The notes: generated from the sequence alone by a model not told the origin. Positions 9,460 through 38,469 are shown, counted from the first letter of the stretch. The stretch is 64,000 nt of DNA from an uncultured Chloroflexia bacterium (GCA_963774265.1 CAVZDU010000001.1:576001-640000); one strand, 5' to 3'. Numbers and translations are program-made.

Positions 9460-10116
9460 ATGAGCCTATCCGATCGACAAGTACGCATACTCCAGTTCAT
9501 TCGTTCGTATCTGGAGGAGCACAGCTATCCGCCAACCATCCGGGAAATCGGCAAAGCTGTCGGCATCCCTTCGACATCGGTGGTAAAGTACAACCTTGAG
9601 CGCTTGCAAGAAAAGGGCTACATCGAGCGCAGCGAAGAAGTCTCGCGCGGCTTGAAGCTCGTAGGCGGCCCCAGGTTGGTGTCCATCCCGCGCAGCGAGG
9701 TGCTCGGGATCGTGGAAGTGCCGAAGCTGGGCAAGATCTCGGCCGGCGAACCGATCCTCGCGTTCGGACAGCAGGATGATCCCTACGCCGGGGAGATGCT
9801 GACGCTGACCTCGGACCTGGTTGGTGATCCCACACATGTCTACACGCTGCAGGTCAAGGGCGATTCGATGATCGATGCCCTGGTCAACGATGGCGACTGG
9901 GTGGTGATTCGACACCAGAATACTGCGCATCCGCATGAGATGATTGTAGCGTGGCTGCGAGACCGCGAAGAGACCACGCTCAAGTACTACTTTCCGGAGG
10001 GCGAGCGCGTCCGGCTGCAACCGGCCAACCCCGCCTATCACCCGATCTTCGTCAAAACGGACCAGTTGGAAATTCAGGGCAAGGTGATCGCGATCGTCCG
10101 GCAAATCCCGCAGTAA
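9460..10116 (+). CDS. lexA: SOS repressor LexA
   Basis: [18 protein letters not shown] cleavage site, VKGDSMID (catalytic Ser), TTLK (catalytic Lys), RLQPANP. RBS GAGGAG. Confidence 0.96.
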
Positions 10117-10187
10117 TCTGGCAGGGTGAGGAGTCAACCCATCATGACTCTCTTCACTTCGCGCCTCCGCGTGAGTAATCTCGCCGC

Positions 10188-10784
10188 ATGACCGTCACAC
10201 TGTCCAGATCATTCTACGCTCGAGACAGCGTGGCGGTTGCGCGGGCATTGCTGGGCCAGCGCCTGGTGCGCGTGCTCAATGGCGTGCGCCTTGCCGGCCG
10301 AATTATCGAGACCGAGGCGTACGCCGGGCCCGATGACTCTGCCTCCCACGCCTATCGGCGCACCCCGCGCAGCGACATCATGTACGGCCTGCCGGGGCGT
10401 GCTTACGTCTATTTCATCTACGGAACCCACCACTGTCTCAACGCCGTGACCGATGCGGACGGCGTCCCCGGTGCGGTCCTGATCCGCGCATTGCTTCCCC
10501 AAGAGGGCGTTGACCTGATGTGGCAAAATCGCGGCCTGCCCCCGCAGCCGGTCGTGCAGACGGTTCGCGGCATTGCCGATGGCCCCGGCAAGCTATGCCA
10601 GGCCTTGGGCATCTCAATCTCGGAAAATGGCCTTGATCTGACAGAGAACGCCCGGCTTTTCATTGAGGACGATGTAACAGCACCGGTGGATCAAATCGAG
10701 GCGACGCCGCGTATCGGCGTCCGCGGGGACGAGGAAACCCGCGCGCGGCCCTGGCGTTTCGTTTGGTCACCGCCGCCGCGGTAG
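10188..10784 (+). CDS. mpg: DNA-3-methyladenine glycosylase (MPG/AAG family)
   Basis: GRIIETEAY, AYVYFIYGTHHCLN, AVLIRA, GPGKLCQALGI, TPRIGV, PWRF. Confidence 0.93.
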   Translation: MTVTLSRSFYARDSVAVARALLGQRLVRVLNGVRLAGRIIETEAYAGPDDSASHAYRRTPRSDIMYGLPGRAYVYFIYGTHHCLNAVTDADGVPGAVLIRALLPQEGVDLMWQNRGLPPQPVVQTVRGIADGPGKLCQALGISISENGLDLTENARLFIEDDVTAPVDQIEATPRIGVRGDEETRARPWRFVWSPPPR

Positions 10785-12327
10785 CAGCCGCCGCAACGTC
10801 GCCATTTCAGGCGTCCGGAGCGCAAGGGCAACCCCCAGAAACACCGGTGCGCCCACCAGAAGCCCCCCAATCCCGACGAGAGTCTTTGATCCGCCTGCCC
10901 ATTGACTGGACGCCCAGATCAGCACCGCTGCCATGACGGCAGACGCAGCCGCGGTCTTACCGATCGTGGCCCACAGGCCTTTCCAGTCCAGGCCGCCGAT
11001 CCTGCGCGCCAACAGGGCGAAGAGCAGCACCATCTCCAATGTCGTCGCGATTGTGTTGGCGAGCGCCAGCCCGCCGTGTGCCAGTCGGCCCCGCAGGATC
11101 ATACTTAGCACTACGTTAAGCGCCATTGCGCCGACCCCGATGATCACCGGCGTGCGCGTGTCGTGCAGTGCAGAGAAGGCGCGTGCCTGGATCTCCACGG
11201 CGGAGTGCCCGATCAGGCCCAGGCTGTAAAACGCGAGCGCAAACGTGGTCAAGGCCGTCGATTGAGTTGTGAATTCCCCGCGTTCGAGCAGCAAGCGCAC
11301 CAGGGGCGTGCGCCAGACGAGGAGGCCGACTGCTGCCGGGATAGCCAGGAAGAGCACCCGCGTAAAGTCGTCGTCACCGTCCGCCGCAGTTCCTGCCGCC
11401 GGCCCTGCGCCTCAAGCGACGCAAAAGTGGGAAATGCGGCGGTGGCGACGCCTTGTGCGACGATCCCCTGCGGCAGCAGCATCAGCAACCACGCGTAGTT
11501 CAGCGCGGCCAGGCTTCCGGTGGAGAGCGAGGACGCGAGCAGCGTGTTGACCCAGAAATTAACCTGCACGGCGGCGAGGCCCAGCACACGCGGCCCCATC
11601 AACCGCGCGACTTCGCGCACCTTCGGGTCCTCCAGCCCCAACGTCGGCGTGTAACGGGCGCCGTACCACCACAGGCCGAACAATTGCACATCCAGGTGTA
11701 ACGCTGCGCCGACAACAACACCCAGCACCAGGCCGAACACGCCGAAGGTCGGCGCAAGGAACCAGGCCCCGGCGATGATCGATAGGTTGTATAATATCGG
11801 CGCCAGCGCGGGCAGCAGGAAGTGTTGGAAGCTGTTCAGGACGCCCATGACGATGCCGCTGACGCCGAAGATAACCGTGCTGACCAGCATCCAGCGCACC
11901 AGTTCTGCCGTGAGCGCCTGCTGTGCAGCTGAGAAGCCGGGCGCAAGCACCGTGTGCACCAGCCACGGCGCAGCGAGTGCCAGCAGCACGCGGCCAGCGC
12001 GGTCAGCAGGATAAGCACTAGGTTGACGATCGAACTGAAGAGCCGCCAGCCGTCCTTGAGGTCTTTGCGGGCCAGGCAGCCGGCGAACACGGGGATGAAT
12101 GCTGAGCCGAGCGCGCCGCCCGCAACGAGTTGGAACAGCAGGTCTGGCACGCGGAATGCGGCTTGATACGCGTCCAACTCCGCGCTCGTGCCGAAGCGCG
12201 CGCCGATGATCATCTCGCGTGCCAGCCCCGCGACGCGGCTGATTAAGAACAGGCCCATGACGAGCACCGCGGCGCGGGCGATTTGCCGTGTGGCGCCGGA
12301 TGAGGCAGAGATGGGGCGAGCGGTCAT
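10767..12327 (-). CDS. murJ: Lipid II flippase MurJ/MviN (frame breaks near 12000 and 11355)
   Basis: SRVAGLAREMIIGARFG..DAYQAAFRVPDLLFQLVAGGALGSAFIPVF; RAFSALHDTRTPV; GLALANTI. Spread over three frames. Confidence 0.9.
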
Positions 12328-12400
12328 GGCGGCGATTATAGCATTGCGCGGGTGAACCCGCATACTGTAGGGGCGCCCTGCGCAAAAGAAAGGAACCGAC

Positions 12401-12919
12401 ATGGGTCGTGAAGATCAGGGCGTGGCGGCCAGCCGCCATCGTTACCATGTGGTCCCGCGCACGCTCTGTTTCGTGCGTGACGGCGACGAGGTGCTTCTGT
12501 TGAAGGGCGCGCCGCACAAGCGCATCTGGGCGGGACGCTACAACGGCTTGGGCGGCCACGTCGAGGCTGGTGAGGATTTACTCGGCGCGACCCTTCGTGA
12601 GGTCCGCGAAGAGGCCGGCCTGGAGGTGCATGACGTGCGTCTCGTGGCAGTGGTTCACGCAGACGGCGGCGACGCCCAGCTCGGCATCCTCTTCTTCGTC
12701 TTTACTGCTTGGGCAGACACCAAAGATGTCATCGAATCGTCGGAGGGGTCGTTGCACTGGGTTCCACTTCTAGCCCTCCCCGTCGAGGACATGGCGTCCG
12801 ACCTGCCCGTCATCCTGCCCCGCGTGATGGCGCTCCCGCCGGCTGCACCCCCACTCTTTCTTGCGTACCGTTACGATGAAAAGGACCAGCTCGTGATCCG
12901 TTTCGCTGAACCCGTCTGA
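12401..12919 (+). CDS. NUDIX hydrolase
   Basis: Nudix box GGHVEAGEDLLGATLREVREEAGL. Confidence 0.9.
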   Translation: MGREDQGVAASRHRYHVVPRTLCFVRDGDEVLLLKGAPHKRIWAGRYNGLGGHVEAGEDLLGATLREVREEAGLEVHDVRLVAVVHADGGDAQLGILFFVFTAWADTKDVIESSEGSLHWVPLLALPVEDMASDLPVILPRVMALPPAAPPLFLAYRYDEKDQLVIRFAEPV

Positions 12920-13121
12920 CATTGCCTTAAAGTGCTTTACATTCGTTCTGGATTGTGGTATTAGTTTCAATGACGGTCATGCATACTCCGTAGCATCGTC
13001 GACTTTGCCGTCTGCCTCCTGAATGATTTGTCCCGGCTTGCCTGCATATCTAGCGGATTTCATCACTTTGCTACGATAAATTCTATGTCCGTGGTGCCTT
13101 TCAAAGGGGAGGTTTGCAGCG

Positions 13122-16100
13122 ATGTCTGGTCTCCGCTCTCTGCGCCTCGTATTGGTGTTCACCCTGCTCCTTGCGCTCGTGCCCCCTGTTTCAGCCCGAT
13201 CCACCATTCCCATCCCTGACGCAAAACCACTGGCTGCCAATGGTGTCTCGGGACTAGTTTGGCATGATACGGACGCCGATCGACTGCAAGGGGGCAGCGA
13301 GCCAGGCCTGCCCCATGTCAAACTTTGCCTGTACCAGGAGCTTGCCCCTCCTAACGGCCACGTGGACCCCGGCGAGTCGCCGATCGCCTGCGCGTTCTCC
13401 AGTGGGATCGACGGGACGTTCACCATCACCGACGTGACTCCGGCCGATTATGTGCTCGCCGTGGAAACGGCGACCGTGCTATCGCTCTACGAACTGACCA
13501 CCGCGAGCACCGAGTTCGGCACGCTGAGCATCGAAGCGGAGATGCTGACCGGCTTCGATGTGGGCTACCGCACCAACCTGCCCGCCGATGTGGACAACGA
13601 CTGCACGGTGGACGTGGTGGACATCGAGATTGTGTCGACCGCATTCGGGTCTACCTCATCCCCATACGACCTCAACGGTGATGACATTGTGGACGAGCTC
13701 GATCTCGAGATCGCAGCGCGGTTCTGGGGCAGCCGCCACGCCTGTGACTTTGCGGATGGCGACCTTGACTGGCTCCCCGATGCCTTCGAGGACCCAAACG
13801 CAAATGGAACGGTGGACCCCGGCGAAAGTGATCCGGGTTTCGCCGATACCGATGGGGATGCGCTCGACGATTATCACGAAGTGATGTTCTATGGCACGGA
13901 TCCGTTGGCGAGGGATAGCGACGGCGACGGGCTGGACGACCGTGACGAGGTGCTCAACTACGCCAGTGATCCCGAGAATGCGGACTCTGACGCGGATGGC
14001 ATTTCTGACGGGGTTGAGGTCCACTTCACGGGCACCGACCCCGTGCGCGGAGACACCGATGGCGACGGTCTTCTCGATCCGGTTGAAGACGCTGACTACG
14101 ACGGCGTCCTCGACGCAGGGGAGACCTCGCCCAACAGCGCCGATACGGATGAAGATGGGTTATGGGATGGCAACAATGTGGTCCAAGCCCTTGCGCTGGC
14201 CGCGGCCATGCCGGAGGTGTCCATCCTGCCGATGGCCGACACCATCTTTGGCGAACTGGATGCAGGGACGAATCCCCGCCTGGCTGACACCGACAGTGAC
14301 ACCATCGGCGACGGTGAGGAAGTGCGTCTCGGCACGAACCCGCTGGCTCCGGATACGGATGCGGATGGGTTGAACGACGCTGAGGAGCTGAGCGAGGGGA
14401 TCGACGGCTTCTTCACCGATCCGAAGTCGGCCGACTCGGACGCCGACACAATTGAGGATGGCGCGGAGCGGGATTATGGCTGCAATCCGCTCATCGTGGA
14501 CGGCGATGGCGATAAGCTCGATGACGCCCGCGAGCTGAAGGAAGCGGGAACGCTCTGCAATGACCCGGACAGCGACGACGACGGCTTGCTCGACGGCGCG
14601 GAAGTAGACGTGTACGGAACCGATCCCCTGTCTGGCGACAGCGACGAGGACAAGATGCCCGACCCGTGGGAGGTCGAGCATGCTTTGAATCCGTTGGCCG
14701 ACGACGCCGGCGCCGATCCAGATGAGGATCTCGTGATTAACCTGCGCGAGTACATCGGCGCGGACGGCGACCCGGCCACCACCGCGGATGCCACGGATCC
14801 GAACAACCCAGACACCGACGCCGATCTGCTCTCAGATGGGGACGAGCTGGACAAATACCTTACCAAGGCGTACGACAGCGACAGCGACGGCGACCAGGCG
14901 CGCGACGGCGATGAGGTCCGCTTCGGAACCTACCCGCTAGTTTCCGACAGCGACGGTGACGGCATCCCCGACGGCGTCGAGGCCGCGTGGGCGGTGGACG
15001 TCGACAACGACGGCCTGATCTGCGCGCTAGACTTGGACTGCGACGGTGATGGCATCCCGGACAACCAGGAGGACACGGACCTGGATGGCAAGATCGCAGG
15101 GGACACGAATGAAGACCGCCGCCGGGACGCGGGCGAGACCTGGACGGAGAGCGATCCCGCATCGGTCGATAGTGACAACGACGGCATGTCCGACGACTGG
15201 GAGGTCGCTCATGGCTTCGATCCCAGGAACCCGGCTGACGGCGACAGCGATGCGGATGCCGACGGCCTGACCAACACCCTGGAGTGTTCGCTTGGCAGCA
15301 ACCCTCGCGCGACCGACAGCGACGGCGACTCCCTGCCCGACGGGTTCGAGCACGCCCAGGGCCTGGACCCCACGGATCCTGCCGACGCCGACCAGGACAA
15401 GGATAGCGATGGCCTCTCGAACCGGGTGGAGTACGCGGCCGGCCTGCCCATCGACGACTTCGACGCGGATGACGACGGCCTGCGTGATGGTGAGGAGCTC
15501 GCCTGGTCCGCGGACACGGACGGCGACGGGACGATCGACGCGAAGGATGCCGATGCAGACAACGACGGCATCGTGGACGGCGTCGAGGTGTTCAATTACA
15601 CCACCTCTCCCGTGTTGGCCGACACCGACGGCGATACCCTCTCGGACTACACCGAGCTGTTCACCTGCCATTCTGATCCGCTGCTGGTCGACACCGACGG
15701 CGATACCCTGGCTGACGATGAGGAAGTGCGGCTGGGCGCCGATGACTATCTCACGAACCCGCTCAGCCGCGACACGGACGGCGACACCCTCACGGACGAC
15801 TTCGAGGTGACGACCGACCCGACCCGGGCCGACACCGACAGCGACGGTGCGGACGACGCCCAGGAGATCATCCTGGGCTCGAACCCGCTCAACCCCGACA
15901 CCGACGCGGACGGCTTGGCGGATGGGCAGGAGATCAGACTGGGGACCAGCCCGACCAGCCCGGACACGGACGGCGACGGCGTGCCGGACGGCATCGACCC
16001 CGATCCGCTCTCGGTGGACACTGACCGAGACGGCCTGCGGGACGGTGTGGAGCTGGTGCCCGGCTGGAACGGCGACTGGATGGAGGCCGAGGACGGGGAC

Positions 16101-19100
16101 GCACATCCCAGCGCGGTGACGACCGACCCGGATTTCGGCAATGAGGTGGCGATGCGAGGCGGGGGCGACGAGGTCGTGAACTGGACCAGCATCGAGCTGG
16201 GACCCGGCGCCTATCGTGTCCTGGTGCGTGGCCGCGCCGTGAAGTACCCCCGCGACCTGATGCGGGTTGAGATTCTCGCCGGCAAAACGCCTCTCTTCGA
16301 GCGTGAGTATCCGCTGATGTCGGGCGTATACCGCTGGCATAGTTCTGATCTCATCACCCTGGCTGCGCCCGCAACGTTGCAGGTGGTTGTCCGCGACCTG
16401 GGTGAAGCTGAAGCGAGTGTGATGGTGGATCAACTCATGATCGCGGCCGCGGACGACGAGTTTGCTTTCTTACGCACCCTGGCGCTCGACGACGACACCG
16501 ATGAGGATGGGCTGACCGACGGCGATGAATCGGCCGAGCGCACGCTCTGGTTGGAGGCGGAGGACTACCGCGAATCGGGGCAGGGGCTCGTGGCCGACCT
16601 CGGTGCGTCAAACAGCTTCGCGTTAGCCACGGCCTCTCTCCAGGAGACCATGGTGACCTTCGCGCCCGAATACAAGTTCCTGCCGGGGGAGTACCAGGTC
16701 TTTGCACGCGTCCGGTGGGATCCCCGGGCTGGGCACCAGCCGGACCTGCTCTTCCACGTCGAGACCCCGGGCGGCGCTAGCGACCTGCACCTGCAAGAGA
16801 TCACCGATCAGTACGAGTGGCAGCCGCTTAGCGACGTTTTCGAGATCGGGCAGGATGGCGCGCTCTCGCTGACCGTTCAGGCGAACGGAGCCGAGCCGGG
16901 GGCCGCGTACCTGGACAAGTTGCTGCTCGTGCCGCTACCGTTCACACTGCGCGCCGTTGAAGTTGGCGACCCTGTCTGGTCTGAACCCTTCGAGGGTGTG
17001 CGCCCCTTCCCCGGCGACCCGTGGGGCGGCGGCCCGCCGGCCACCAAGATGCAGTTCATCGTCGGACAGCCGCGGCTCAAGACCGACCCGCTCGATATGG
17101 ACACGGACGGCGACGGCGAGCGCCTGTACCCTGGTGTCATCGCGGACTCCAAAGGTTGGCTGACCGATGCCTTCGAGGTCAAGAGCCTGGGCACCAACCC
17201 CTTCTCAATAGACACGGACGGGGACGCGGACTTGTACCTCTGGGACGGCCATGGATGGACCTTCCAGCCCGACTTCATCCTCGACGACAACGGCGGTTGG
17301 GATGCGAACAACGACTGCATCCCTGACGGCGCGCCAGGCAACCCCGACGGCATGCCCGACTGGACCGACGCGACCGACTGCAATCCGTTGAGCATGGACT
17401 CGGATGACGACAATCTGCTGGATTCTATCGACCCGCTGCCCGCCGACGCCGACATTGATGATGATGGGCTCACGGACGGCGAGGAAGACCTCAGCCTCAA
17501 CGGTCACTTCGACGGGGACCCGGAAACCGATCTCGGCATGAACTACCCCGGCGACCCGAGCTACGATTGCCTTGAGGATGGGCTTCTGCCCGGGTGGGAT
17601 ACCGATGGGGATCTTATCTCCGACGGCACGGAACGCGGCCGGACCGAGCCGCAGGTGGACCCCCTGTACACTGATCTGCACTGTTTCATCGAAGACGCCG
17701 ATCCAAAAACAACCACCGATCCGCGACGCGATGACACGGACGGCGATGTGATCACCGACGGCGCGGAAGACACCGATCGCAACGGCCGGCAAGACGCCGG
17801 AGAGACCGCCAGCCACACACCCGATTCGGACGGCGACGGCCTGTGGGATGCCACGGACGTAGGCGCCCACTGGGGTGAGCTGACCGTCCACTATCTGGGG
17901 TCGGTCGGTCCCACCGACCCGCTTCTCACAGATACCGATGGTGACGGGCTGGGCGATGGCTTTGAGGTCGCGAGCCAGAAGCCCACGGACCCGCGCGACT
18001 CCGACACCGACCGAGACGGCGCGACGGACGGCCAGGAAGTCCTGGGCATGTTCGGCTACAAGACCGATCCCACGATCCAGGATACCGATGGCGACGGCAT
18101 CACAGACCACGAGGAGCTGGTCGCGGGCGCCGACGGCTATCTTACCAACCCGCTGGCCGCCGACACGGACAACGACGGCGTGGCTGACCAAGAGGAAGTG
18201 ACCTCAGGGGACGACGATTTCTCGACCGACCCGACGAAGGCAGATACCGACGGCGAGGGGCTCTCGGACGGCGAGGAGGTGACGGCGGGCGCGGACGGTT
18301 ATCTCACTGACCCGACGCAGGCCGATACGGACGGCGACGGCTTCTCCGACAAGGTTGAAGCCGACTACGGCGCGGATCCCATCGACGCCGCGGACAAGCC
18401 GGCCGAGGTGACGGCTGGCAGCGTCGCGGTGCAGACCGTCGGCGGCACGCAGTGGACCGCCCTCGGTGATGGCAGCTATCAGGCGACGGGCACGCTCATC
18501 CTGGCCGCGGTTGGCTCTGGCGAAACCACCTTAAGTTATGTCAACTCAAGGTGGGGGCCGTATGTCTACATGGCATACCCAGAGCAGCTGACCATTGAGC
18601 CGGCCGCGCTCCCACGGCCCGTGCGCGAGCGTTTGATGAGCGCGGACCAGGTCGACGCCGGCGCGGGCACGGTCACCATCAACGGCACCGTGACCGTGCT
18701 GCCGGGCGGCGTGGGCATCGACGCGACGGGCGCGCTGGTCGTCTCGCTCGGGCCCGGCGGGGACATGACGCTGGCCAGCAACGCATCCTACTCGGTGAAC
18801 CCCAGCACAGGGACTCTCACGGTCACCGGTAGCATGAACAGCCATGTCCAGATCGGAACGTGGAGCTTCGCGAGCTTTGACTCCTTCGACACCGGCGCCC
18901 AGGTCACAATCGACCTGGCTACAGGCGCAGTGGCTGGCAAGGCGGACGTCAAGGTGCTTATGGCGGTCACACCGCCGGTCTACAGCACGTTGACCGCCAG
19001 CTTCGTCTTCAGCCCGACCGGGCTGCTCCACCTGTATGCGCGTGGCGGAAGCGACGTCATCCCGCTCGACATGATTGGCGTGGACAATGACTTCACGATG

Positions 19101-21104
19101 GCCGAGGCGGAGATTTACATAAACGTACCGAATGTATCCTTCCTGGGCCGCGCCAAGCTGATCGATTGGCAGATCGGTGACGAGTTCTTCGAGGGCGGTG
19201 GGCCTTCGCTGGAGATCGGCCTGGATCGGACCCGGGATCGCTTCTGGTTCAGCGCGGACCTGTCCGTCGAGGCGAAGATCCAGGCAGGCGGTCTTTCACT
19301 GACGGTTTCCCCGCCTGCGGGAGGCCACTTCGCCTTTGAAACCGGCATCGTCCGTCCCTATTGGTTGATCCGTGCCGGTCTCGAGCTGCCGCCGGTGAGC
19401 GAGGTGCTGAGCATCAACGAGGTGCTCATCGAGATCGATCCTTCGGGCCACGCCATGCTGACGCCCACCTATCCGGTCGGTGACATCCTGACCGGCCCGA
19501 TCGCCGGACATCTCCGCCTGCTGGGAGACGTGACGGTCCATGTCCCGATACCTCTTCCGGCGGCCGCCGCACAGACGGACGCCGAGGAGCCCAACGAGAC
19601 CGAGGCGGCGCCCGATGGCGCCTCCTCCGAGGGCCCGACGTTGGACATCCACCTGGCCGGCGAAATCCTGTGGCGGTTGGACCTCACCGGCTGCAATCAC
19701 GTCCTGGCCGCCAACTCGACGATCGGGCTAGGTGTATCGGTGGCGGGGGTGGGCCTGATGTATGACTTCGGTGGGAGTAGCATGCATCTGGCCATGGGCG
19801 GCGACCTGCCTTATTGCTCCCCGGAACTGCTGTCCATCTCGATGGTCCAGAACGGGATCGAGCTGGGCAACTTCGGCAGTCCGGCGCTCGACGAGCTGGG
19901 CAGGATCAATCTGCAGCCCCAGGTGGGCGTCGCCGTGGAGTTCAACATCCCTGCAGCAACGATGCAGCTTGCCGGCGAGTATGAAGTCGGGCCGTTTGAG
20001 TTCGGGGCGTCATTCCTCCTGGACGTGCAGAAAAACGAGATGACCGTGTCGGCATCCCTCGACATGGCGGTGCTGGATGCAGGCGTTCTACTGACGGGAT
20101 CGCTGGGGTTCGACGGCGTGCTGGCGTTGGGCGGCAGCGCGACCGTGGGTGTGGCCGGCTTCGATGTTTTCAACAGCAGCTTTGCCTTCACCAACAACCC
20201 GGCCCCGCCGGGGACGCATATGCTCACCGCTTCCGGCAGCCTCACCATCCCCGTCGTCGGCAACGCGATGATGAGCGGGTGGCTGGATGCCGACGGCAGC
20301 TTCAGGCTGACCGGCGGCGGCGGCCTCTCGCCCGGTGGATTTAGCCTTGCGAGCGCCACTTTCACATGGACACAGACCCAGCTGAGCTTCGGCGGCACGC
20401 TGACAGTGCCCGGCGGGATCGGGACGGTCGCCGTCAGCGGTGCGGCCACGCCCACCAGCTTCAATCTGACCGGGAGCGCCACCCTGGGGTTGGGCGGCTT
20501 CAACATGGGCGCGACCGTCACCCTCAACAATTACGGCCTCAACGCGTCCGGCAGTGTGGGGGTGGCGGGCACGACGGTGTCTATGGCTGGCTACATCCAC
20601 ACCGACGGCACCTATCTGCTCACGGCAAGCACCACCGTCGCCTTGCAGGGCTATCAGCTCGCCTCGGCCACGTTCACGCTCGAGAAGACGACGAGCAACT
20701 TCCGCTTCCAGGCGCTCGGCGACCTGACCCTCGGCAGCCGGACGCTCGCGTCGGTCACGGTCAACTTCCAGACTGACGGTGGGTTCAGCGCGGGCATCGC
20801 GATCACCTGGGGTTACACCTTCACCGCGACGCTGTCTGTGAGCAATACCGGCAGCTTCGACTTCACGACCGCCGCACAAAACCTTGGCCTGTCGGCAGCC
20901 GGTTGTTCGCTCAGCGGCAGCTACAGCTTGCATGTGTGGGGCACGGATGCGCTCCACGTTAGCTTCAGCGCCAGTGGTACGGCTAGCGTGAAACTCAGTG
21001 GCGTGACCGTCTTCAGCGGCGGCATTGGGGTGTCAAGTGCGGGGAAGATCACTGTGACTTACAGCACCTGGCTTGGCAATGTATCGGTGACGTTCTCGAT
21101 CTGA
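13122..21104 (+). CDS. Giant secreted protein: SdrD-B-like, dockerin-like, ~50 DxDxDG (TSP3-like) repeats, two CBM-like domains, beta-rich C-terminus
   Basis: Uninterrupted 2660-aa ORF. RBS GGAGG; signal peptide; SGLVWHDTDAD..EPGL; duplicated Ca loops ADVDNDCTVDVVD/YDLNGDDIVDELD; DTDGDGLxDxxE..GTDP repeats (manual count); WMEAED and WLEAED domain starts. Confidence 0.85.
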   Translation: MSGLRSLRLVLVFTLLLALVPPVSARSTIPIPDAKPLAANGVSGLVWHDTDADRLQGGSEPGLPHVKLCLYQELAPPNGHVDPGESPIACAFSSGIDGTFTITDVTPADYVLAVETATVLSLYELTTASTEFGTLSIEAEMLTGFDVGYRTNLPADVDNDCTVDVVDIEIVSTAFGSTSSPYDLNGDDIVDELDLEIAARFWGSRHACDFADGDLDWLPDAFEDPNANGTVDPGESDPGFADTDGDALDDYHEVMFYGTDPLARDSDGDGLDDRDEVLNYASDPENADSDADGISDGVEVHFTGTDPVRGDTDGDGLLDPVEDADYDGVLDAGETSPNSADTDEDGLWDGNNVVQALALAAAMPEVSILPMADTIFGELDAGTNPRLADTDSDTIGDGEEVRLGTNPLAPDTDADGLNDAEELSEGIDGFFTDPKSADSDADTIEDGAERDYGCNPLIVDGDGDKLDDARELKEAGTLCNDPDSDDDGLLDGAEVDVYGTDPLSGDSDEDKMPDPWEVEHALNPLADDAGADPDEDLVINLREYIGADGDPATTADATDPNNPDTDADLLSDGDELDKYLTKAYDSDSDGDQARDGDEVRFGTYPLVSDSDGDGIPDGVEAAWAVDVDNDGLICALDLDCDGDGIPDNQEDTDLDGKIAGDTNEDRRRDAGETWTESDPASVDSDNDGMSDDWEVAHGFDPRNPADGDSDADADGLTNTLECSLGSNPRATDSDGDSLPDGFEHAQGLDPTDPADADQDKDSDGLSNRVEYAAGLPIDDFDADDDGLRDGEELAWSADTDGDGTIDAKDADADNDGIVDGVEVFNYTTSPVLADTDGDTLSDYTELFTCHSDPLLVDTDGDTLADDEEVRLGADDYLTNPLSRDTDGDTLTDDFEVTTDPTRADTDSDGADDAQEIILGSNPLNPDTDADGLADGQEIRLGTSPTSPDTDGDGVPDGIDPDPLSVDTDRDGLRDGVELVPGWNGDWMEAEDGDAHPSAVTTDPDFGNEVAMRGGGDEVVNWTSIELGPGAYRVLVRGRAVKYPRDLMRVEILAGKTPLFEREYPLMSGVYRWHSSDLITLAAPATLQVVVRDLGEAEASVMVDQLMIAAADDEFAFLRTLALDDDTDEDGLTDGDESAERTLWLEAEDYRESGQGLVADLGASNSFALATASLQETMVTFAPEYKFLPGEYQVFARVRWDPRAGHQPDLLFHVETPGGASDLHLQEITDQYEWQPLSDVFEIGQDGALSLTVQANGAEPGAAYLDKLLLVPLPFTLRAVEVGDPVWSEPFEGVRPFPGDPWGGGPPATKMQFIVGQPRLKTDPLDMDTDGDGERLYPGVIADSKGWLTDAFEVKSLGTNPFSIDTDGDADLYLWDGHGWTFQPDFILDDNGGWDANNDCIPDGAPGNPDGMPDWTDATDCNPLSMDSDDDNLLDSIDPLPADADIDDDGLTDGEEDLSLNGHFDGDPETDLGMNYPGDPSYDCLEDGLLPGWDTDGDLISDGTERGRTEPQVDPLYTDLHCFIEDADPKTTTDPRRDDTDGDVITDGAEDTDRNGRQDAGETASHTPDSDGDGLWDATDVGAHWGELTVHYLGSVGPTDPLLTDTDGDGLGDGFEVASQKPTDPRDSDTDRDGATDGQEVLGMFGYKTDPTIQDTDGDGITDHEELVAGADGYLTNPLAADTDNDGVADQEEVTSGDDDFSTDPTKADTDGEGLSDGEEVTAGADGYLTDPTQADTDGDGFSDKVEADYGADPIDAADKPAEVTAGSVAVQTVGGTQWTALGDGSYQATGTLILAAVGSGETTLSYVNSRWGPYVYMAYPEQLTIEPAALPRPVRERLMSADQVDAGAGTVTINGTVTVLPGGVGIDATGALVVSLGPGGDMTLASNASYSVNPSTGTLTVTGSMNSHVQIGTWSFASFDSFDTGAQVTIDLATGAVAGKADVKVLMAVTPPVYSTLTASFVFSPTGLLHLYARGGSDVIPLDMIGVDNDFTMAEAEIYINVPNVSFLGRAKLIDWQIGDEFFEGGGPSLEIGLDRTRDRFWFSADLSVEAKIQAGGLSLTVSPPAGGHFAFETGIVRPYWLIRAGLELPPVSEVLSINEVLIEIDPSGHAMLTPTYPVGDILTGPIAGHLRLLGDVTVHVPIPLPAAAAQTDAEEPNETEAAPDGASSEGPTLDIHLAGEILWRLDLTGCNHVLAANSTIGLGVSVAGVGLMYDFGGSSMHLAMGGDLPYCSPELLSISMVQNGIELGNFGSPALDELGRINLQPQVGVAVEFNIPAATMQLAGEYEVGPFEFGASFLLDVQKNEMTVSASLDMAVLDAGVLLTGSLGFDGVLALGGSATVGVAGFDVFNSSFAFTNNPAPPGTHMLTASGSLTIPVVGNAMMSGWLDADGSFRLTGGGGLSPGGFSLASATFTWTQTQLSFGGTLTVPGGIGTVAVSGAATPTSFNLTGSATLGLGGFNMGATVTLNNYGLNASGSVGVAGTTVSMAGYIHTDGTYLLTASTTVALQGYQLASATFTLEKTTSNFRFQALGDLTLGSRTLASVTVNFQTDGGFSAGIAITWGYTFTATLSVSNTGSFDFTTAAQNLGLSAAGCSLSGSYSLHVWGTDALHVSFSASGTASVKLSGVTVFSGGIGVSSAGKITVTYSTWLGNVSVTFSI

Positions 21105-21117
21105 TCAGGAGGGCGCG

Positions 21118-22005
21118 ATGAACCGTACAGTGCAGTCCATTGTGGTGGTGGCAGGCCTTCTCGCGTTCCTGCTGGCAACGCCAGCAGGAACGCGGGTCGA
21201 TGCCCGCGCTTTGGCGGGGCCGGATGCCACCGCTCGCATTGGCTTCAGCCAGGATGTCTACGACGTCACTGTCGGCGATGATTTCTCCGTCGTGATGATC
21301 GTGGAGGATGCCGACGCGCTGGGAGGATGGGAGACTGTCCTCGCCTATGATCCGGCTGTGGTGGGGTCCACTGCGCTCTCTGCAGGCGGTTTTCTGACCG
21401 CAGGGGGTCGCGAGGCGGCGCTGCTCGGGCCGGACGGCGATCCTGGGAGCGGGCAGGTCGCGCTGGGCGGCTATTCCTGGGACCCTACAGGGGGCATCCC
21501 GCACGGGGTCAGTGGCGGGGGTGAGCTCGCCCGCCTCGATCTGCACGCCGTTGCGGTCGGCCAGTCCGTGCTGGCTCTTAGCGATACCGCTACCTTGCTC
21601 GCCTCGGTTCACGCCACAAGCGTGACGCCCCAGTACGCCGAGCAGCACACGGCGCTGGTTAACGTGTACGCCGCGCCCAGCGCGCCGGAGGCAGCCCCCG
21701 CCCTCGATGGTAGCCAGGTCGAGATCACATGGCACGTTGCAGCTAACACGTCCTATCAGATGTGGAGGAGTACCTCACCATACTTCGTGCCAGGTGAGGG
21801 CGACAGCATTGTGATCGCGGACTATTCCTCGACCGTCCAGAACAACTGCAGCTTGGTTGGAGAGACGATCACCTGCTTCGACCCCTACGAGCACGTGGTG
21901 CCGGGCACGTTTTTCTACATCGTCCAGAGCCTCAATCCTGCCGGCGCAACAGCGACTTCGCGATGCATCGGTGCGTTTATCTTTCCCATCCAGGGAGGGA
22001 GTTGA
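21118..22005 (+). CDS. Secreted cohesin-like protein with C-terminal FN3-like domain
   Basis: Signal peptide; VTVGDDFSVVMIV..LGGWETVLAYDPAVV..GGGELARLDLHAVAVGQSVLAL (cohesin-like pattern); then ITW..YQMWRSTSPYF..FFYIVQS. Starts 13 nt after the giant gene. Confidence 0.75.
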   Translation: MNRTVQSIVVVAGLLAFLLATPAGTRVDARALAGPDATARIGFSQDVYDVTVGDDFSVVMIVEDADALGGWETVLAYDPAVVGSTALSAGGFLTAGGREAALLGPDGDPGSGQVALGGYSWDPTGGIPHGVSGGGELARLDLHAVAVGQSVLALSDTATLLASVHATSVTPQYAEQHTALVNVYAAPSAPEAAPALDGSQVEITWHVAANTSYQMWRSTSPYFVPGEGDSIVIADYSSTVQNNCSLVGETITCFDPYEHVVPGTFFYIVQSLNPAGATATSRCIGAFIFPIQGGS

Positions 22006-33315: not shown

Positions 33316-34050
33316 CTAACCTCGCTCTTCGTTGATCAGATACTTGGCTGCGACGGCTCCGACGGTGCAAGGAGACGGCTGCCCCGCGGCCAGCAGACGC
33401 AGCGCCTCCAGATCGGAGGTCCAGGCGATATCGCCGGGCGCCAGCAGGCAAACGGCGCCCGGTTCGAACGCTGCGGAGAGCCGGCCGTCCTTGAAATAAT
33501 AGAGGGAATCGCTCATCGCGGTGGGATAGGCTTGCATGAGCGGCGGGACGTCATTGGGCTTGAACCAAAGCTTGATTTCTCGTTCCGCCTCAGGCGGCGT
33601 TGCCGAGGCGTGGATGAGGTTGTCCATCCGTTCGCTGATCACGTTGCCCGCGGCATCTTTGATGGGCACCAGCGTGCCCAGGGCGCGGATGCACCCCGGC
33701 TTCTTTTCCCGAGCGACCAGTGGGTTCGTCGGTCCCGCGATGTCGCGGATTTTTTGGACCGCGTTCGGGCCCTGGTAGGCGAACGCGATCACCCGGCGCT
33801 TCTCAGGCTCATTCGGGTAGTGCTCCAGGCCCATGATGTAATTGAGCAGCGGCGGATAGAAGGGTTTACCCCGGTGTTCGGCGTAGTGCTCCTCGGCGAG
33901 CAACGGACTCACGTTGACGATCTTCGCGGCGGCAAAGCGCAGGCCGCTGTGGACTTCGGATAGCAGCGAAAGCACATATCCGGTCAATGAGTTCTTTAGG
34001 GCGTCCGGTTTGATCAGCACAAGCGTTTGTTCGAGCTCTTTGCCGTCCAT
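33316..34050 (-). CDS. ndk: Nucleoside diphosphate kinase with C-terminal extension
   Basis: EQTLVLIKPDA, HYAEHRGKPFY, GPTNP..PGCIR, NLIHAS (phospho-His), AEREIKLWF. Confidence 0.9.
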   Translation of the reverse strand: MDGKELEQTLVLIKPDALKNSLTGYVLSLLSEVHSGLRFAAAKIVNVSPLLAEEHYAEHRGKPFYPPLLNYIMGLEHYPNEPEKRRVIAFAYQGPNAVQKIRDIAGPTNPLVAREKKPGCIRALGTLVPIKDAAGNVISERMDNLIHASATPPEAEREIKLWFKPNDVPPLMQAYPTAMSDSLYYFKDGRLSAAFEPGAVCLLAPGDIAWTSDLEALRLLAAGQPSPCTVGAVAAKYLINEERG

Positions 34051-34177
34051 GGGTTCTCCTTGTTTGGATTAATGACAATGGTGCGTTCCGCTGATCCTAC
34101 CTTGGTTCGTGGATAGCCGAGAGATTGAGAGTATAGCGTCAATGGCGTGCAGTACAAAGCAATAGGTCGAAGTCCGA

Positions 34178-35120
34178 TCATAAGGCGCTCAGGACGGACT
34201 CTACCTTTTTGTCGAGTTGGGGACCTAACTGCAATACCTGCTGACCAGAACCGAATGCCTTCGAAAAGTCAGCCGTTAACATTCTCACGGTTCTTTTGTG
34301 CGTCAACGCACGAATGGAACTGAAAGGCACGGCAGGGCCGAGCGCATAAGCCATGACTGACATAACGCCCTTACCAGGCCGCGCTCGCTTGGGGCACGCC
34401 GCCAACCAGCTTCTCAAATTGTAGGTACACACGGTCTGGCACAATGAAGTAATGGCCCAGGTGGCAAAGATTTGACGTACTGGCCACAGCGCCCTTGAGA
34501 ATAAGTTGCGGAATGAGTCTCTTCCAGACGTTGGCCCAATTCATCCCATGATTGGAATCCGGTATCTGCGGCAACTCATCTCGATATGCTTCCCAATTCG
34601 CGGAGTAGTTGCCCGTGGTGTCGATGCTTTGAACTTCGCAGGGAATAATCGATGCAAGCCTCTGATCCGTTATGCGTGCGAATACCCAGTCTAGGTTCAA
34701 TTTGACGGCGTCATTATTGTCTAGCTTGACTTCGCTCCCGGAATTCTGCCCCAGCATGACCACATAATCGTTAGGCAATCTCTTGCTCTGCTTGCGTTGC
34801 GAGTACTCGTCAGCCGTGTAAGTAGGTAAGGCAACTCCAGTAGCATCTCTTACAACGCCTTTCAGCGCGAAGTAGTGACCTGCATAGAGGCGCTGAGCGC
34901 ATGCGATCACTTCTTCATCAATGTTCCTTGTTTTGTTGTGGACGCTACAAGTTCCGTATACCTCAACCACTCCTCCGCCTCTTGGATGAGAGTGTTTGAT
35001 GCAGGTGTTGCCGACAAAGGGGCACTTTCGGCTCTTCCATTGCTTGCGCGCGGGTTCAGACGTGTCATCGGGTGCATAACCGAATATTTCTGCTAGATCA
35101 TTCCCTTTGGCTCTGGCCAT
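34178..35120 (-). CDS. NotI-family restriction endonuclease (frame break near 34385)
   Basis: AEIFG, CPF..C.K, GTCS, CAQR (four Cys), D..CEVQSIDTTGNY, GMNWANVWKRLIPQLILKG. Confidence 0.75.
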
Positions 35121-37232: not shown

Positions 37233-37308
37233 AAAGTCACCGTAGCCGCTTCTCTTATTCTACTGGTGTATGGCTGGACGAACGCCACTCTTCTAAACGA
37301 TACCGGCC

Positions 37309-37337
37309 ATTATAGCTTTCCCGGACTATCGGGGCAA
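37309..37337 (-). promoter_or_regulatory. Promoter of the R-M operon
   Basis: TTGCCC-17 nt-TATAAT. Confidence 0.5.
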
Positions 37338-37425
37338 ACCAGTCCGTCTTACCGGACACTGAACCTAGAAGTCGCTCCAACTTAACGGACACGTATTCCT
37401 TTCACCGAAAAACACCGGCTTCCCG

Positions 37426-38469
37426 CTAGTCGTGCTGCAGTTGGTGCACTCTTCGCACCCCGGCCATCAGCCTCTCCAATGATGGCTCCGGCCACCTGGA
37501 CGCGCCGATCGGGTCCGCTCCTGGCTCGGCGTCGCCCAGCAGTGCGCGGCACGTGTCCGCAACGCCATGCGCCAGCACGGTCAGGTCGTAGCCTCCCTCC
37601 AAAACCACCACCAGCCGGCCGCCGCACAACCTCTCGGCCAGGCCGACCACTCCCGTGGCAAGCTGCCAATAGCCCGCCAGCGAGAGATGTAGCCCGGCGA
37701 GCGGGTCTCGCCAGTGCCCATCGTAGCCCGCAGATACAAGGATTAACTCGGGCTGGAAGCGTTCGGCCAGGGGGTTGACTGCCTCACCGAACAGCCGGCT
37801 GAATCCCGCGTCACCGGTGCCCGTGGGCAGCGGGAAATTGACCGTGTAGCCGCTGCCCGCGCCTGCGCCGGCCTCACGCCAGTCGCCCGTGCCGGGATAG
37901 TGGGGGTATTGATGGGTGGACATGAAGAGAACGTTGGGCGAGTCGTAGAAGATGTCCTGCGTGCCATTGCCGTGGTGGACGTCCCAGTCGAAGATAAGAA
38001 CGCGGCGGAGGCCGAACTCGTCCAGCGCAGCCTGCGCCGCGGCCGCGATGTTGTTGAAGAGGCAGAAGCCCATGCCGCGCCGGCGTTCGGCGTGATGCCC
38101 GGGCGGACGGACGAGCGCGATGCCATTGCGGAGTGCGCCAGTCAACACGCCGCGCGTCAACTCGACCGTGCCTCCGGCTGCCAACATGGCCGCATCATAC
38201 GAACGGCTGACCAGGTATGTGTCAGTGTCAAGGTAGCCGCCGCCCCGCACACAGATCTCGCGCACTCTATTGACGTAATCCCGATCGTGCACGCGGTCAA
38301 GCAGCTTGGAGTCGATCGGTTGCGGCGTAATGGGCTGCATTCGCTGCCACACGCCAACGTTAACCAGCTCCGCTACAATGCGCTGCAGTCGCGTAGCGCT
38401 CTCCGGATGCCCGGGCAGGTCGTGCTCCAGGAAGAGCGGATCGTAAAGGACGCCCGTAGCCGCCGTCAA
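37426..38469 (-). CDS. Zn-dependent (histone deacetylase family) deacylase
   Basis: HPES..RL, RPPGHHA, GFCLFNN, DWDVHHGNGTQ, SAGYD.H..DPL, LEGGY. Confidence 0.95.
   Translation of the reverse strand: MTAATGVLYDPLFLEHDLPGHPESATRLQRIVAELVNVGVWQRMQPITPQPIDSKLLDRVHDRDYVNRVREICVRGGGYLDTDTYLVSRSYDAAMLAAGGTVELTRGVLTGALRNGIALVRPPGHHAERRRGMGFCLFNNIAAAAQAALDEFGLRRVLIFDWDVHHGNGTQDIFYDSPNVLFMSTHQYPHYPGTGDWREAGAGAGSGYTVNFPLPTGTGDAGFSRLFGEAVNPLAERFQPELILVSAGYDGHWRDPLAGLHLSLAGYWQLATGVVGLAERLCGGRLVVVLEGGYDLTVLAHGVADTCRALLGDAEPGADPIGASRWPEPSLERLMAGVRRVHQLQHD

Follow-up and report, generated by a model that had tools for sequence, protein, structure and literature searches.

A candidate non-cellulosomal cohesin-dockerin gene pair with a giant TSP3-repeat protein in a soil Anaerolineae bacterium

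Beyond the cellulolytic bacteria, cohesin and dockerin modules are common, yet for only a few pairs of this kind is a partner or role known; non-cellulosomal modules are reportedly the subject taken up by Peer et al. in 2009. The DNA analyzed here, a window of 64,000 nucleotides (GCA_963774265.1 CAVZDU010000001.1:576001-640000) from a soil Anaerolineae (Chloroflexota) bacterium, holds a gene for a giant secreted protein with a dockerin-like module, followed directly by a gene for a small secreted protein with a cohesin-like domain. This raises the question of whether the two proteins are partners and, if so, what their partnership would serve.

Gene arrangement and architecture of the giant protein

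The two ORFs lie on the plus strand, and 13 nt separate the stop codon of the giant gene from the ATG of the small one (positions are counted from the first letter of the window):

12916..12943, plus strand: promoter-like site 5' of the giant gene (CTGACA-16-TACATT, 9/12 matches; a weak consensus match only)
13106..13112, plus strand: Shine-Dalgarno-like GGGGAGG, 5' of the giant-gene ATG (sequence reading)
13122..21104, plus strand: gene of the giant secreted protein (P0001; ORF, 2660 aa)
21107..21112, plus strand: Shine-Dalgarno AGGAGG inside the 13-nt gap, 5 nt 5' of the small-gene ATG (sequence reading)
21118..22005, plus strand: gene of the small secreted protein with a cohesin and a C-terminal domain (CTD) (P0002; ORF, 295 aa; homologues)

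The earlier note, made from the sequence alone, had placed a secreted cohesin-like protein 13 nt downstream of the giant, and both the ORF and the cohesin homology and fold described below agree with this. A consensus scan found no promoter-like site between the two genes. Since the region scanned contained three promoter-like sites versus 1.6 +/- 1.3 in shuffled sequences, the one that precedes the giant gene carries no weight by itself. The genes flanking the pair are unrelated to it (NUDIX, a split MurJ, MFS), and near-identical short contigs from two other studies span the junction of giant and small gene. From their layout, the two genes look like one bicistronic transcription unit.

Full-length orthologues with 54-61% identity exist, and the giant ORF is therefore regarded as a real gene. 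Its product is divided as follows:

13122..13196, plus strand: probable Sec signal peptide, aa 1-25 (ending in VSA, followed by RS), lipobox Cys absent (by-eye reading)
13239..13571, plus strand: SdrD_B-like Ig/beta-sandwich domain, aa ~40-150 (Pfam SdrD_B below cut-off; homologues)
13578..13736, plus strand: dockerin module, aa 153-205, two Ca loops with a helix after each (HMMs, loop ligands, orthologues)
13737..16076, plus strand: first TSP3 Ca-binding repeat tract, ~20-30% Asp (Pfam TSP3_bac; loop positions, composition)
16077..16466, plus strand: beta-rich module A, aa ~986-1115 (homology to module B)
16539..16946, plus strand: beta-rich module B, aa ~1140-1275 (paralogue of module A)
17079..18371, plus strand: second TSP3 repeat tract, aa ~1320-1750 (Pfam TSP3_bac; loop positions)
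18372..21101, plus strand: C-terminal head, rich in Gly/Ser/Thr/Ala, aa ~1751-2660 (composition; no family match)

For the Ig-like domain, Pfam SdrD_B remained sub-threshold on the giant itself (17.4 bits, cut-off 29.7) and exceeded the cut-off on the orthologue P0178 (34.5 bits); residues 1-230 matched PF17210-bearing proteins with E-values down to 2.4e-22, and with these N-terminal 230 aa as query only SdrD_B-type proteins and no orthologue were retrieved. The TSP3 repeats, defined in PF18884 as repeated Ca-binding units of the form D-x-D-x-D-G-x-x-D-x-x-E, were detected on the whole giant at 54.1 bits (cut-off 25) in 10 stretches, and a loose motif count gave 49 D-x-D/N-x-D/N loops. Such long TSP3-type Ca-binding tracts are all that the giant has in common with MtsD and with CglD, the adventurous-gliding lipoprotein of Myxococcus. 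The CglD model (NF033765) reached 307.1 bits in seven stretches, the best of which (aa 1492-1671) lies in the second TSP3 tract, and MtsD (NF047639) reached 73 bits in six stretches (cut-off 800). These matches are fragmented and sub-cut-off, and a CglD equivalog was rejected because its curated cut-off is 400. Unlike CglD, the giant has no lipobox; as the signal peptides of both giant and small protein are without Cys, a lipoprotein was rejected for either.

Modules A and B, of ~130 aa each, are homologous to each other (25% identity, E 4e-7). Neither matched Pfam, and a search of aa 980-1290 against PDB sequences gave nothing significant (best E 0.12, in module B, to a hypothetical protein), these modules being the candidate 'CBM-like' domains of the earlier note. 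In the head, the last ~490 aa consist of repeated beta-type units, and aa ~2170-2660 gave matches at many sites along two other giant proteins. No match was obtained for aa 1927-2660 in Pfam, no significant one for the head among PDB sequences (best E 0.12), and neither a cluster at >=0.9 nor a family in the ESM Atlas. The head was found in three orthologues only and was not detected in 40 relatives or in 400 genomes of the phylum.

In a cellulosome, dockerins are carried by plant-cell-wall-degrading enzymes and are bound by a multi-cohesin scaffoldin with a cellulose-binding module. Pfam and NCBIfam scans of the giant and the small protein found no glycoside hydrolase or other CAZyme family, in line with the earlier note, and there is one cohesin only; a cellulosome component was thus rejected. 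Likewise, among 81 cohesin relatives no glycoside hydrolase family occurs within the 25 most frequent Pfam families. The description of the pair as non-cellulosomal, with two genuine modules, held up.

The dockerin and the cohesin

Type I dockerins (PF00404) consist of two segments of ~22 residues with 12-residue, EF-hand-like loops that carry Asp/Asn at positions 1, 3, 5, 9 and 12, and each loop leads into an alpha-helix (F-hand pair fold). In the giant, two 12-residue loops start at aa 156 and 183, in both of which positions 1, 3, 5, 9 and 12 are occupied by acidic or amide residues, and they align with those of Pfam-positive dockerins of the same genome. The duplicated Ca-loop/helix module that had been noticed near the N-terminus was thereby found at nt 13578-13736. 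The Dockerin_1 scan suggested at that time gave a divided result: a 62-aa fragment of the giant scored 21.5 bits (E 2.7e-4), below the cut-off of 22.9, and 17.1-17.4 bits in longer contexts, while the corresponding fragments of the orthologues scored 26.1 bits (P0177, above the cut-off) and 20.7 bits (P0178). An HMM of the dockerin subtype scored 35.1 bits on the module (E 2.3e-8) and at most 0.4 bits on the rest of the giant. As this HMM singles out the module, it is more than a chance find among 49 Ca loops. Against the HMM, which represents dockerins located between cohesins, the module and its orthologues scored 35-54 bits.

The dockerin is kept at the same place in three orthologues of the giant. 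The ligands at positions 1, 5, 9 and 12 of loop 1 and at positions 1, 3, 5 and 12 of loop 2 are invariant among them; P0177 and P0178 both have Thr at position 3 of loop 1. In a stand-alone AF2 model, for which the mean pLDDT was only 62, a helix follows each loop (aa 165-174 and 192-202). Foldseek returned nothing at E<1 for this low-confidence model. By VIA, the top five of 48,161 chains were dockerins (Z 3.0-3.4), with EF-hands tying at 2.7-2.9, and a PDB sequence search gave three weak matches (E 0.13-0.69), the best two of which were dockerins (E 0.13 and 0.33). Judged by these scores, the dockerin of the giant is divergent from the Pfam family.

The small protein comprises three parts:

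21118..21210, plus strand: probable signal peptide, aa 1-31 (ending in ARA, followed by LAG), without Cys (by-eye reading)
21229..21672, plus strand: cohesin domain, aa ~38-185 (AF2 fold, Foldseek, Pfam-positive homologues)
21673..22002, plus strand: FN3-like CTD, aa ~186-295 (alignments, fold match, genome HMM)

Its AF2 model had a mean pLDDT of 83.9, with 93-98 over most of aa 40-180 and a helix of low pLDDT at aa 7-18 in the signal peptide. Model and Foldseek search revealed the jelly-roll beta-sandwich of cohesins: the best match was 2w1n, a cohesin+FN3 double module (E 3.2e-10), and cohesins were matched at E 3e-10 to 1e-6, including type I cohesins with a target TM of up to 0.80. With phmmer, 756 relatives were obtained at E<=1e-3, among them proteins with 2-8 matched stretches at E 1e-38 to 1e-10. 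Pfam Cohesin was present in 10 of 10 sampled relatives (E<=0.01; nine over the curated cut-off) and in 69 of the 81 homologues scanned. The small protein itself gave no match to PF00963, even as fragments at E<=10, it was not among the matches of a PF00963 search of its own genome, and PDB sequences yielded nothing significant. The cohesin HMM scan that had been proposed as a check therefore failed on the protein and succeeded on its homologues, and the model matches solved cohesins. Because aa ~38-185 combine homology to Pfam-positive cohesins with a cohesin fold, the assignment is solid despite the Pfam miss.

Subtypes and pairing

To what extent the two modules belong together can be read from their occurrence in other proteins. 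Among 151 proteins retrieved via the cohesin alone, 58 carry the dockerin subtype of the giant in the same polypeptide, with the dockerin loops at most 60 aa from a cohesin in 55 of the 58. A subtype HMM was built from 36 such cohesin-fused dockerins and searched against the 49,885 six-frame ORFs of the host genome, of which exactly one, the giant, was matched (with the score given above). The corresponding HMM of the cohesin subtype identified the small protein at E 2.5e-54 and one other ORF weakly (E 6.7e-6). As each HMM essentially singles out one of the two proteins, the two subtypes are each represented once in the genome, by a dockerin and a cohesin whose genes adjoin. Because the two subtypes are fused in many proteins elsewhere and each occurs once in the host genome, the sequence comparison favours a cognate pair of giant dockerin and small-protein cohesin.

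Complex prediction with the giant dockerin and the small-protein cohesin, one of the checks named by the earlier note, resulted in a median score of 0.59 (runs 0.66, 0.58 and 0.59), while the best of three controls scored 0.02. In the calibration, 58 of 80 solved complexes reached the mark, and so did 2 of 110 mismatched pairs; only 7 of the 80 solved complexes scored 0.60 or lower, as did both mismatches that passed. The runs agreed in at least 93% of contacts, with a partner pLDDT of 61-62. As similar complexes have already been solved, the pass may come from the memory of the predictor, and the modelling lends weak support to binding.

The arrangement of the fused proteins is worth recording in its own right: a cohesin-dockerin-cohesin (Coh-Doc-Coh) cassette recurs among the cohesin relatives and is present in 50 of the 58 dockerin-cohesin fusion proteins. 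In the open-access literature searched, no mention of 'cohesin-dockerin-cohesin', 'Coh-Doc-Coh' or 'dockerin flanked by cohesins' was found.

Proposed retention of the giant and alternative explanations

The CTD of the small protein is absent from the giant and its orthologues and is a terminal domain common to other large secreted proteins of the host. An HMM of the CTD matched 15 ORFs of the host genome, and in 12 of these it ends within three residues of the stop codon. Of ten CTD-bearing ORFs with a Pfam scan, five carry adhesin-like or other extracellular-type domains, such as CARDB/PKD/Big_1, LVIVD/beta-helix and GEVED. Cysteines C244 and C253 of the CTD are invariant in the three closest sequences, its last strand is conserved, and in the relative L031 dockerin, cohesin and CTD are fused in one chain. 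Extreme C-terminal placement is typical of sorting and retention modules. Sequence reading and Pfam revealed no membrane, lipid, LysM, SLH or sortase signal in the small protein, so that the dedicated anchor or adaptor of the earlier note is not recognizable as such; that the small protein anchors the giant is something we infer only from the terminal position that the CTD has in 12 of its 15 ORFs.

With somewhat better than even confidence, we regard the locus as a bicistronic, non-cellulosomal cohesin-dockerin pair in which the CTD of the small protein retains the giant, held at its N-terminal end, as an adhesin or matrix protein. Both proteins would be exported by Sec. The giant consists of an Ig-like domain, the dockerin, ~1200 residues of TSP3 repeats flanking two paralogous beta modules, and an orphan head of 900 residues, and its N-proximal dockerin would bind, in the presence of calcium, to the one cohesin of the 295-aa protein. 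The latter would supply in trans the FN3-like CTD, which in a dozen other large secreted host proteins is present in cis as the very last domain. The CTD would most likely serve for retention on, or targeting to, a component of the cell envelope or sheath, with the acidic stalk and the head of the giant projecting outward.

The same complex may also be oriented in reverse, with the giant fixed to the envelope or sheath by its C-terminal head or acidic stalk and the small protein acting as cargo or adaptor at the N-terminal end, its CTD binding a ligand. The lack of a known anchoring motif in the small protein fits this arrangement, as do the long run of beta-type repeats common to other giant proteins in which the head ends and the weak internal tandem copies of the CTD in one protein, P0056, which resemble an ordinary FN3-type spacer or binding module. 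However, in most host ORFs that have it the CTD comes last, as is typical of sorting and retention modules, and the head matches no known anchor family; we consider the reverse orientation rather unlikely.

Retention of the giant by its neighbour would further be called into question if the giant took part in a genome-wide network. The host genome holds a second, different cohesin-dockerin set in two clusters, with at least six further ORFs with strong dockerin-HMM matches (five Pfam Dockerin_1 positive at E<=0.001) and about six further cohesin ORFs (three over the Pfam cut-off), and cross-reaction is possible. The giant might dock on scaffoldin-like cohesin proteins (contig C6 or C9) and the small protein might hold others, such as dockerin-tagged phosphatases, their adjacency being incidental. 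In favour of a network is the sole orthologous giant locus with readable flanks, L127, from another Chloroflexota MAG. The giant there has kept its dockerin, and its gene is broken into at least seven ORFs; searches found no small-protein homologue within 10 kb or elsewhere in the ~5 Mb assembly (of unstated completeness), nor any Pfam Cohesin match. Small-protein orthologues (P0003 and P0004) are 60% identical. In two genomes of the same family, cohesin-CTD proteins with 34-37% identity stand alone: their genes lie next to those of regulators, a PBP and a peptidase and not next to that of a TSP3 giant. Seven genomes of the same genus contained no full-length match to the small protein, and neither this protein nor a three-sequence alignment found a confirmed relative in genome contigs and metagenome contigs. 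On conservation, the earlier proposal thus partly fails; a dedicated pair is favoured by the one-to-one subtypes in adjacent genes and weakened by L127 and by the second set. Against a network, the HMM of the six other dockerins does not match the giant, nor does the giant-subtype HMM match those six; since the latter does match the giant, the miss reflects a difference of subtype and not the absence of a dockerin. Moreover, the cohesin subtype of the small protein is essentially unique in the genome, and the dockerin subtype of the giant is the one fused to it elsewhere. We regard such a network as quite improbable. Least probable is that the module is a Ca-binding EF-hand pair that stabilizes the N-terminal end of the giant and binds no cohesin, the small protein acting alone: the sub-cut-off Dockerin_1 score, the tie with EF-hand proteins and the orthologue of locus L127 (genome G439), which keeps the module though no cohesin is detectable there, speak for it, but the conserved place in three orthologues, the 35-54 bits against dockerins between cohesins, which none of the many TSP3 loops approaches, and, weakly, the complex prediction speak against it.

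Retention of the giant through the small protein would have parallels in known systems. Anchoring scaffoldins of clostridial cellulosomes, such as OlpA, OlpC and SdbA of C. thermocellum, combine a cohesin with SLH. Like them, the small protein is secreted, has one cohesin with a further module of another kind at its C-terminal end, and would keep a large dockerin protein on the cell surface, and the OlpA cohesin (3ul4) has a TM of 0.79 to its cohesin in Foldseek. Unlike them, it has an unnamed FN3-like module in place of SLH, its cargo is neither scaffoldin nor enzyme, and the dockerin of the giant is N-proximal and not C-terminal. Cohesin-dockerin complexes of Clostridium perfringens glycoside hydrolases are used outside cellulosomes. 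Like the small protein, the top fold match 2w1n (GH84C) has one cohesin with an FN3-type domain after it, and the NagH dockerin (2ozn, NagJ-NagH) was the top, though weak, VIA match of the giant dockerin (Z 3.4) and the second PDB sequence match (E 0.33). In C. perfringens, however, the modules sit on glycoside hydrolases or toxins, whereas neither protein here has a recognizable enzyme domain, and phylum and dockerin subtype differ.

Two further systems are comparable, as far as described in the accessible parts of the sources. The 'Planctosome' hypothesis for freshwater Planctomycetes proposes, from sequence alone, Ca-dependent docking of cohesins and dockerins without a link to cellulose, and includes a giant of >2000 aa with signal peptide and TSP3 repeats (PMC6461901); there the giant is the cohesin carrier and proposed anchor (lamin-tail domain) with peptidase cargo (PMC6461901), while here it is the dockerin carrier and no enzyme is involved. 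The 'dockerin-type giant proteins' of Omnitrophota are extracellular, combine dockerins with bacterial TSP3 repeats and are proposed to serve attachment (10.1101/2023.11.21.568195; PMC10066038). They have many dockerin repeats and at least 30,000 aa, whereas the giant described here has one dockerin and its putative partner is encoded by the adjoining gene, and the accessible parts of these sources name no cohesin partner gene (10.1101/2023.11.21.568195; PMC10066038). As these sources already propose cohesin-dockerin sets outside cellulosomes that include giant TSP3 proteins (PMC6461901; PMC10066038; 10.1101/2023.11.21.568195), 'undescribed system' was too strong a term. The locus varies on such systems and looks like a surface attachment unrelated to cellulose breakdown; 'cohesin-dockerin' and 'Anaerolineae' were not found together in any paper of the open-access literature searched.

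As a test case the locus is clean, with one dockerin and one cohesin of distinct subtype in adjacent genes and no confusing enzymes. Its cargo is a 2660-residue Ca-binding protein of a phylum in which little is known about the proteins of envelope and sheath, and the recurrent Coh-Doc-Coh cassette and the shared CTD may bear on how these filamentous bacteria build their surface. Speculatively, and on balance improbably, Anaerolineae and their kin might use one dockerin/cohesin subtype as a general surface snap-fastener, combined as a Coh-Doc-Coh cassette in many proteins and split over two genes here, with the CTD as a common surface-retention module. A C-terminal cassette could then join proteins head-to-tail so that they form a sheath or matrix, and the Ca-loaded stalk of the giant would be clipped in trans to the lineage-specific FN3-like CTD. 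If this were true, cassette and CTD would be undescribed parts of envelope assembly in filamentous Chloroflexota.

A two-gene locus for a giant protein and a secreted neighbor

The giant protein P0001 and the small protein P0002 are encoded by adjacent genes with a gap of 13 nt. Together with the C-terminal domain (CTD) of P0002, they occupy the following positions of the window:

13122-21104, + strand, ORF of the giant protein P0001 (2660 aa)
21118-22005, + strand, ORF of the small protein P0002 (295 aa)
21673-22002, CTD of P0002

The ATG of the giant gene is preceded by GGGGAGG, and an AGGAGG ends 5 nt before the ATG of the small gene. In a consensus scan, which overall did not exceed shuffled sequences, the gap between the two genes held no promoter-like site, and a weak one was seen upstream at 12916-12943. 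The junction is bridged by near-identical short contigs of two other soil-metagenome studies (X1 record 7, 21014-21278, 5 differences; X4 record 22, 21032-21176, 3 differences), so the two-gene arrangement is not an assembly artefact. The pair is flanked by unrelated genes, namely a NUDIX gene and a split MurJ gene upstream and MFS transporters downstream. Neighboring housekeeping genes have their closest relatives in uncultured Anaerolineales/Anaerolineae MAGs, with 83-87% identity in the case of a POR subunit. The assembly itself comprises 5.5 Mb on 10 contigs and is 84% complete.

Two side observations were made in the window. On the - strand (10767-12559), the MurJ lipid II flippase is encoded in two pieces by ORFs that overlap, 11249-12559 covering profile positions 73-282 and 10767-11357 positions 285-437; the split is a frameshift or sequencing error. 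At 34001-38000 the GC content is 0.51-0.56 against about 0.62-0.65 elsewhere, and this stretch may be acquired DNA.

The only Pfam match of the whole giant protein was TSP3_bac (54.1 bits, 10 stretches). Matches to CglD (307 bits, cut-off 400) and MtsD (73 bits, cut-off 800) were sub-threshold and driven by repeats. A domain map was drawn from composition, motif positions and fragment scans:

Domain map of the giant protein P0001
aa 1-25, signal peptide, assigned by eye
aa ~40-150, SdrD_B-like domain, from a fragment scan
aa 153-205, dockerin
aa ~206-985, TSP3 tract 1
aa ~986-1115 and ~1140-1275, a pair of beta modules that share homology (25% identity, E 4e-7)
aa ~1320-1750, TSP3 tract 2
aa ~1751-2660, head rich in Gly, Ser, Thr and Ala

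The SdrD_B-like region matches PF17210-bearing proteins and scored 17.4 bits in P0001 and 34.5 bits in its orthologue P0178. Fragment scans of the beta modules and the head gave no Pfam match, and PDB sequence searches with them no significant one (best E 0.12 in each search). The label 'CBM-like' of the earlier note is therefore a tentative one. The head had no match in the Atlas and was detected neither in 40 relatives nor in a phylum-wide sample of 400 genomes. Repeated units make up its C-terminal ~490 residues and have matches at many positions of two giant proteins that are otherwise unrelated.

Three orthologues of the giant were obtained, P0177 (2714 aa) and P0178 (2823 aa), both from metagenome collections, and a full-length copy at locus L127 of another Chloroflexota MAG (10001-18507), about 80% identical to P0178. 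The reading frame of this last copy is interrupted, giving at least 7 overlapping ORFs; the gene may be decaying, or the assembly may be prone to errors.

Identification of the dockerin and the cohesin

As P0001 holds 49 Asp-rich loops, a chance look-alike of a dockerin had to be excluded. Both loops of the candidate module show the full ligand pattern, and in the AlphaFold2 model they are followed by helices (aa 165-174 and 192-202; stand-alone pLDDT 62). Direct searches gave Pfam Dockerin_1 at 21.5 bits (E 2.7e-4, cut-off 22.9) on a P0001 fragment and three weak PDB sequence matches, the best two of which are dockerins (E 0.13 and 0.33). Fold comparison gave weak evidence: Foldseek returned no match at E<1 for the model, and in a wide VIA search of 48,161 chains the five best were dockerins, but at a Z of no more than 3.0-3.4, followed by EF-hand proteins (2.7-2.9). 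The module is kept at aa 148-206 in P0177 and P0178 (Pfam scores 26.1 and 20.7 bits), where most ligand residues are invariant and both proteins have Thr at position 3 of loop 1.

The decisive evidence came by an indirect route. Similarity to the P0002 cohesin was the sole criterion by which 151 proteins were collected; 58 of these carry dockerin loops of the subtype seen in the window, and an HMM built from the dockerins of 36 of these 58 matched the P0001 module with 35.1 bits (E 2.3e-8), while the TSP3 loops of P0001 reached at most 0.4 bits.

For P0002, no Pfam, NCBIfam or PDB sequence match was found. An exhaustive phmmer search revealed 756 relatives of P0002 at E<=1e-3, many with 2-8 copies of the matched domain; its closest orthologues are P0003-P0006. 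Pfam Cohesin was detected in 10 of 10 sampled relatives at E<=0.01 (9 over the curated cut-off) and in 69 of the 81 relatives scanned. The AlphaFold2 model (mean pLDDT 83.9, 32-row alignment) had as its top Foldseek match 2w1n, a cohesin and FN3 double module of C. perfringens GH84C (E 3.2e-10), with type I cohesins ranking next (target TM up to 0.80). Since its homologues are Cohesin-positive and its fold matches, P0002 consists of a signal peptide, a cohesin (aa ~38-185) and an FN3-like CTD (aa ~186-295). The dockerin-bearing giant and its secreted, cohesin-like neighbor, as first noticed from the DNA, are confirmed.

A probable cognate pair and other cohesin-dockerin sets

The interpretation in the earlier note is supported in part. 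On balance, the dockerin of P0001 and the cohesin of P0002 are somewhat favored to be a cognate pair. In 55 of the 58 proteins with the subtype dockerin, it lies within 60 aa of a P0002-type cohesin. In the genome of the window, the dockerin HMM matched one of 49,885 six-frame ORFs, P0001, and the cohesin HMM matched P0002 (E 2.5e-54) and weakly one other ORF (E 6.7e-6). The other dockerins of this genome belong to one C6 protein and, on contig C9, to PhoD/metallophosphatases and Flg_new proteins; they are of a different subtype, which does not cross-match that of the window in either direction. Complex prediction weakly supports the pair, with a median of 0.59 against 0.02 for the best of 3 controls (partner pLDDT 61-62; contacts agreeing in at least 93%). 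Of 80 solved complexes, 58 reached the mark, as did 2 of 110 mismatches. Both of these mismatches, and only 7 of the 80 complexes, scored 0.60 or less. As similar complexes are solved, the predictor may owe the pass to memory.

The proposed pairing is backed by fusions of the subtype elsewhere and by its one-to-one occurrence here, but L127 speaks against it. There the giant keeps its dockerin, the next gene is convergent and unrelated, and no P0002 homologue was found within 10 kb or in the ~5-Mb assembly, for which completeness is not stated and which also gave no Pfam Cohesin match. L127 is evidence against obligate pairing, not proof, because of the broken giant gene and the unstated completeness. 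Cohesin-CTD proteins (34-37% identity) from two other members of the family lie beside unrelated genes, and none of 7 same-genus genomes gave a full-length P0002 match.

Further cohesin-dockerin arrangements were observed outside the window, and the first two below also count as fusion evidence for the pair. In 50 of the 151 cohesin relatives (among P0020-P0148), a two-loop dockerin of the window subtype sits between two cohesins with a tight spacer of 73-105 aa, at the C-terminus in 41 of 50. Passenger domains of this Coh-Doc-Coh cassette are adhesin-like (SdrD_B, SpaA, VWA, PKD, NHL, Kelch), and the cassette may polymerise with itself or clasp itself; no paper naming it was found among the open-access papers searched. 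L031:18-3509 (G017:C232) encodes a 1163-aa fusion of CBM96, Dockerin_1, GHL15, cohesin and CTD, which joins the cohesin-CTD unit to a possible enzyme, GHL15 being a hypothetical glycosyl hydrolase family. On C9 of the window's genome (43001-62500, L033), four of six same-strand ORFs encode PhoD/metallophosphatases (purple-acid-phosphatase-like), three of which end in a Pfam Dockerin_1 (28.5-32.7 bits), while in the fourth (932 aa) a dockerin was detected by the genome-derived HMM only. The two remaining ORFs encode Flg_new-repeat proteins, of which the first has Dockerin_1 (25.6 bits) and the second matches cohesin weakly, below threshold. The locus looks like a dockerin-tagged phosphatase set without cellulases. 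A second cohesin cluster on C6 (18501-44000, L034 and L035) contains ORFs of 365 and 516 aa with two Cohesin-type Pfam matches each, a 212-aa cohesin protein, a 607-aa ORF that combines a dockerin with a weak match to cohesin, and a 576-aa PKD-domain ORF in which cohesin is matched weakly. The 365-aa cohesin ORF is overlapped at its end by a 165-aa ORF ending in a CTD, so the two may be a second cohesin-CTD gene, split by a frameshift.

The C-terminal domain and a possible role at the surface

Cohesin-dockerin modules outside cellulosomes are established, and solved examples among the fold matches are 2ozn, 2w1n and 2xdh. A 'planctosome' with a TSP3 protein of >2000 aa is proposed (PMC6461901), and 'Dockerin-type giant proteins' with TSP3 repeats are described for Omnitrophota (bioRxiv 10.1101/2023.11.21.568195; PMC10066038). 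Among the open-access papers searched, none was found to link cohesin-dockerin modules to Anaerolineae.

P0002 showed no transmembrane anchor after cleavage, lipobox, LysM, SLH or sortase signal. Its CTD, an unnamed domain of ~110 aa with a conserved last strand and two cysteines invariant in the three closest sequences, was detected by HMM in 15 ORFs of the genome, and in 12 of them no more than 3 residues separate its end from the stop codon (other copies on C1, C2, C3, C5, C6 and C7; L036-L045). Six of ten CTD ORFs scanned had Pfam matches, five of these to adhesin-like or other extracellular-type domains, namely CARDB/PKD/Big_1 (2383 aa), LVIVD/beta-helix (1885 aa), GEVED/DUF7901, RCC1 repeats and a PMP repeat. 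CTD carriers are large surface-type proteins. The domain is widespread among genomes of this family and seldom seen beyond it; P0001 and its orthologues lack it. The anchoring role suggested for P0002 is tentative and less likely than not. The CTD can be read as the lineage's common terminal module for surface proteins, which the giant would acquire in trans, through a cohesin-dockerin clip to P0002.
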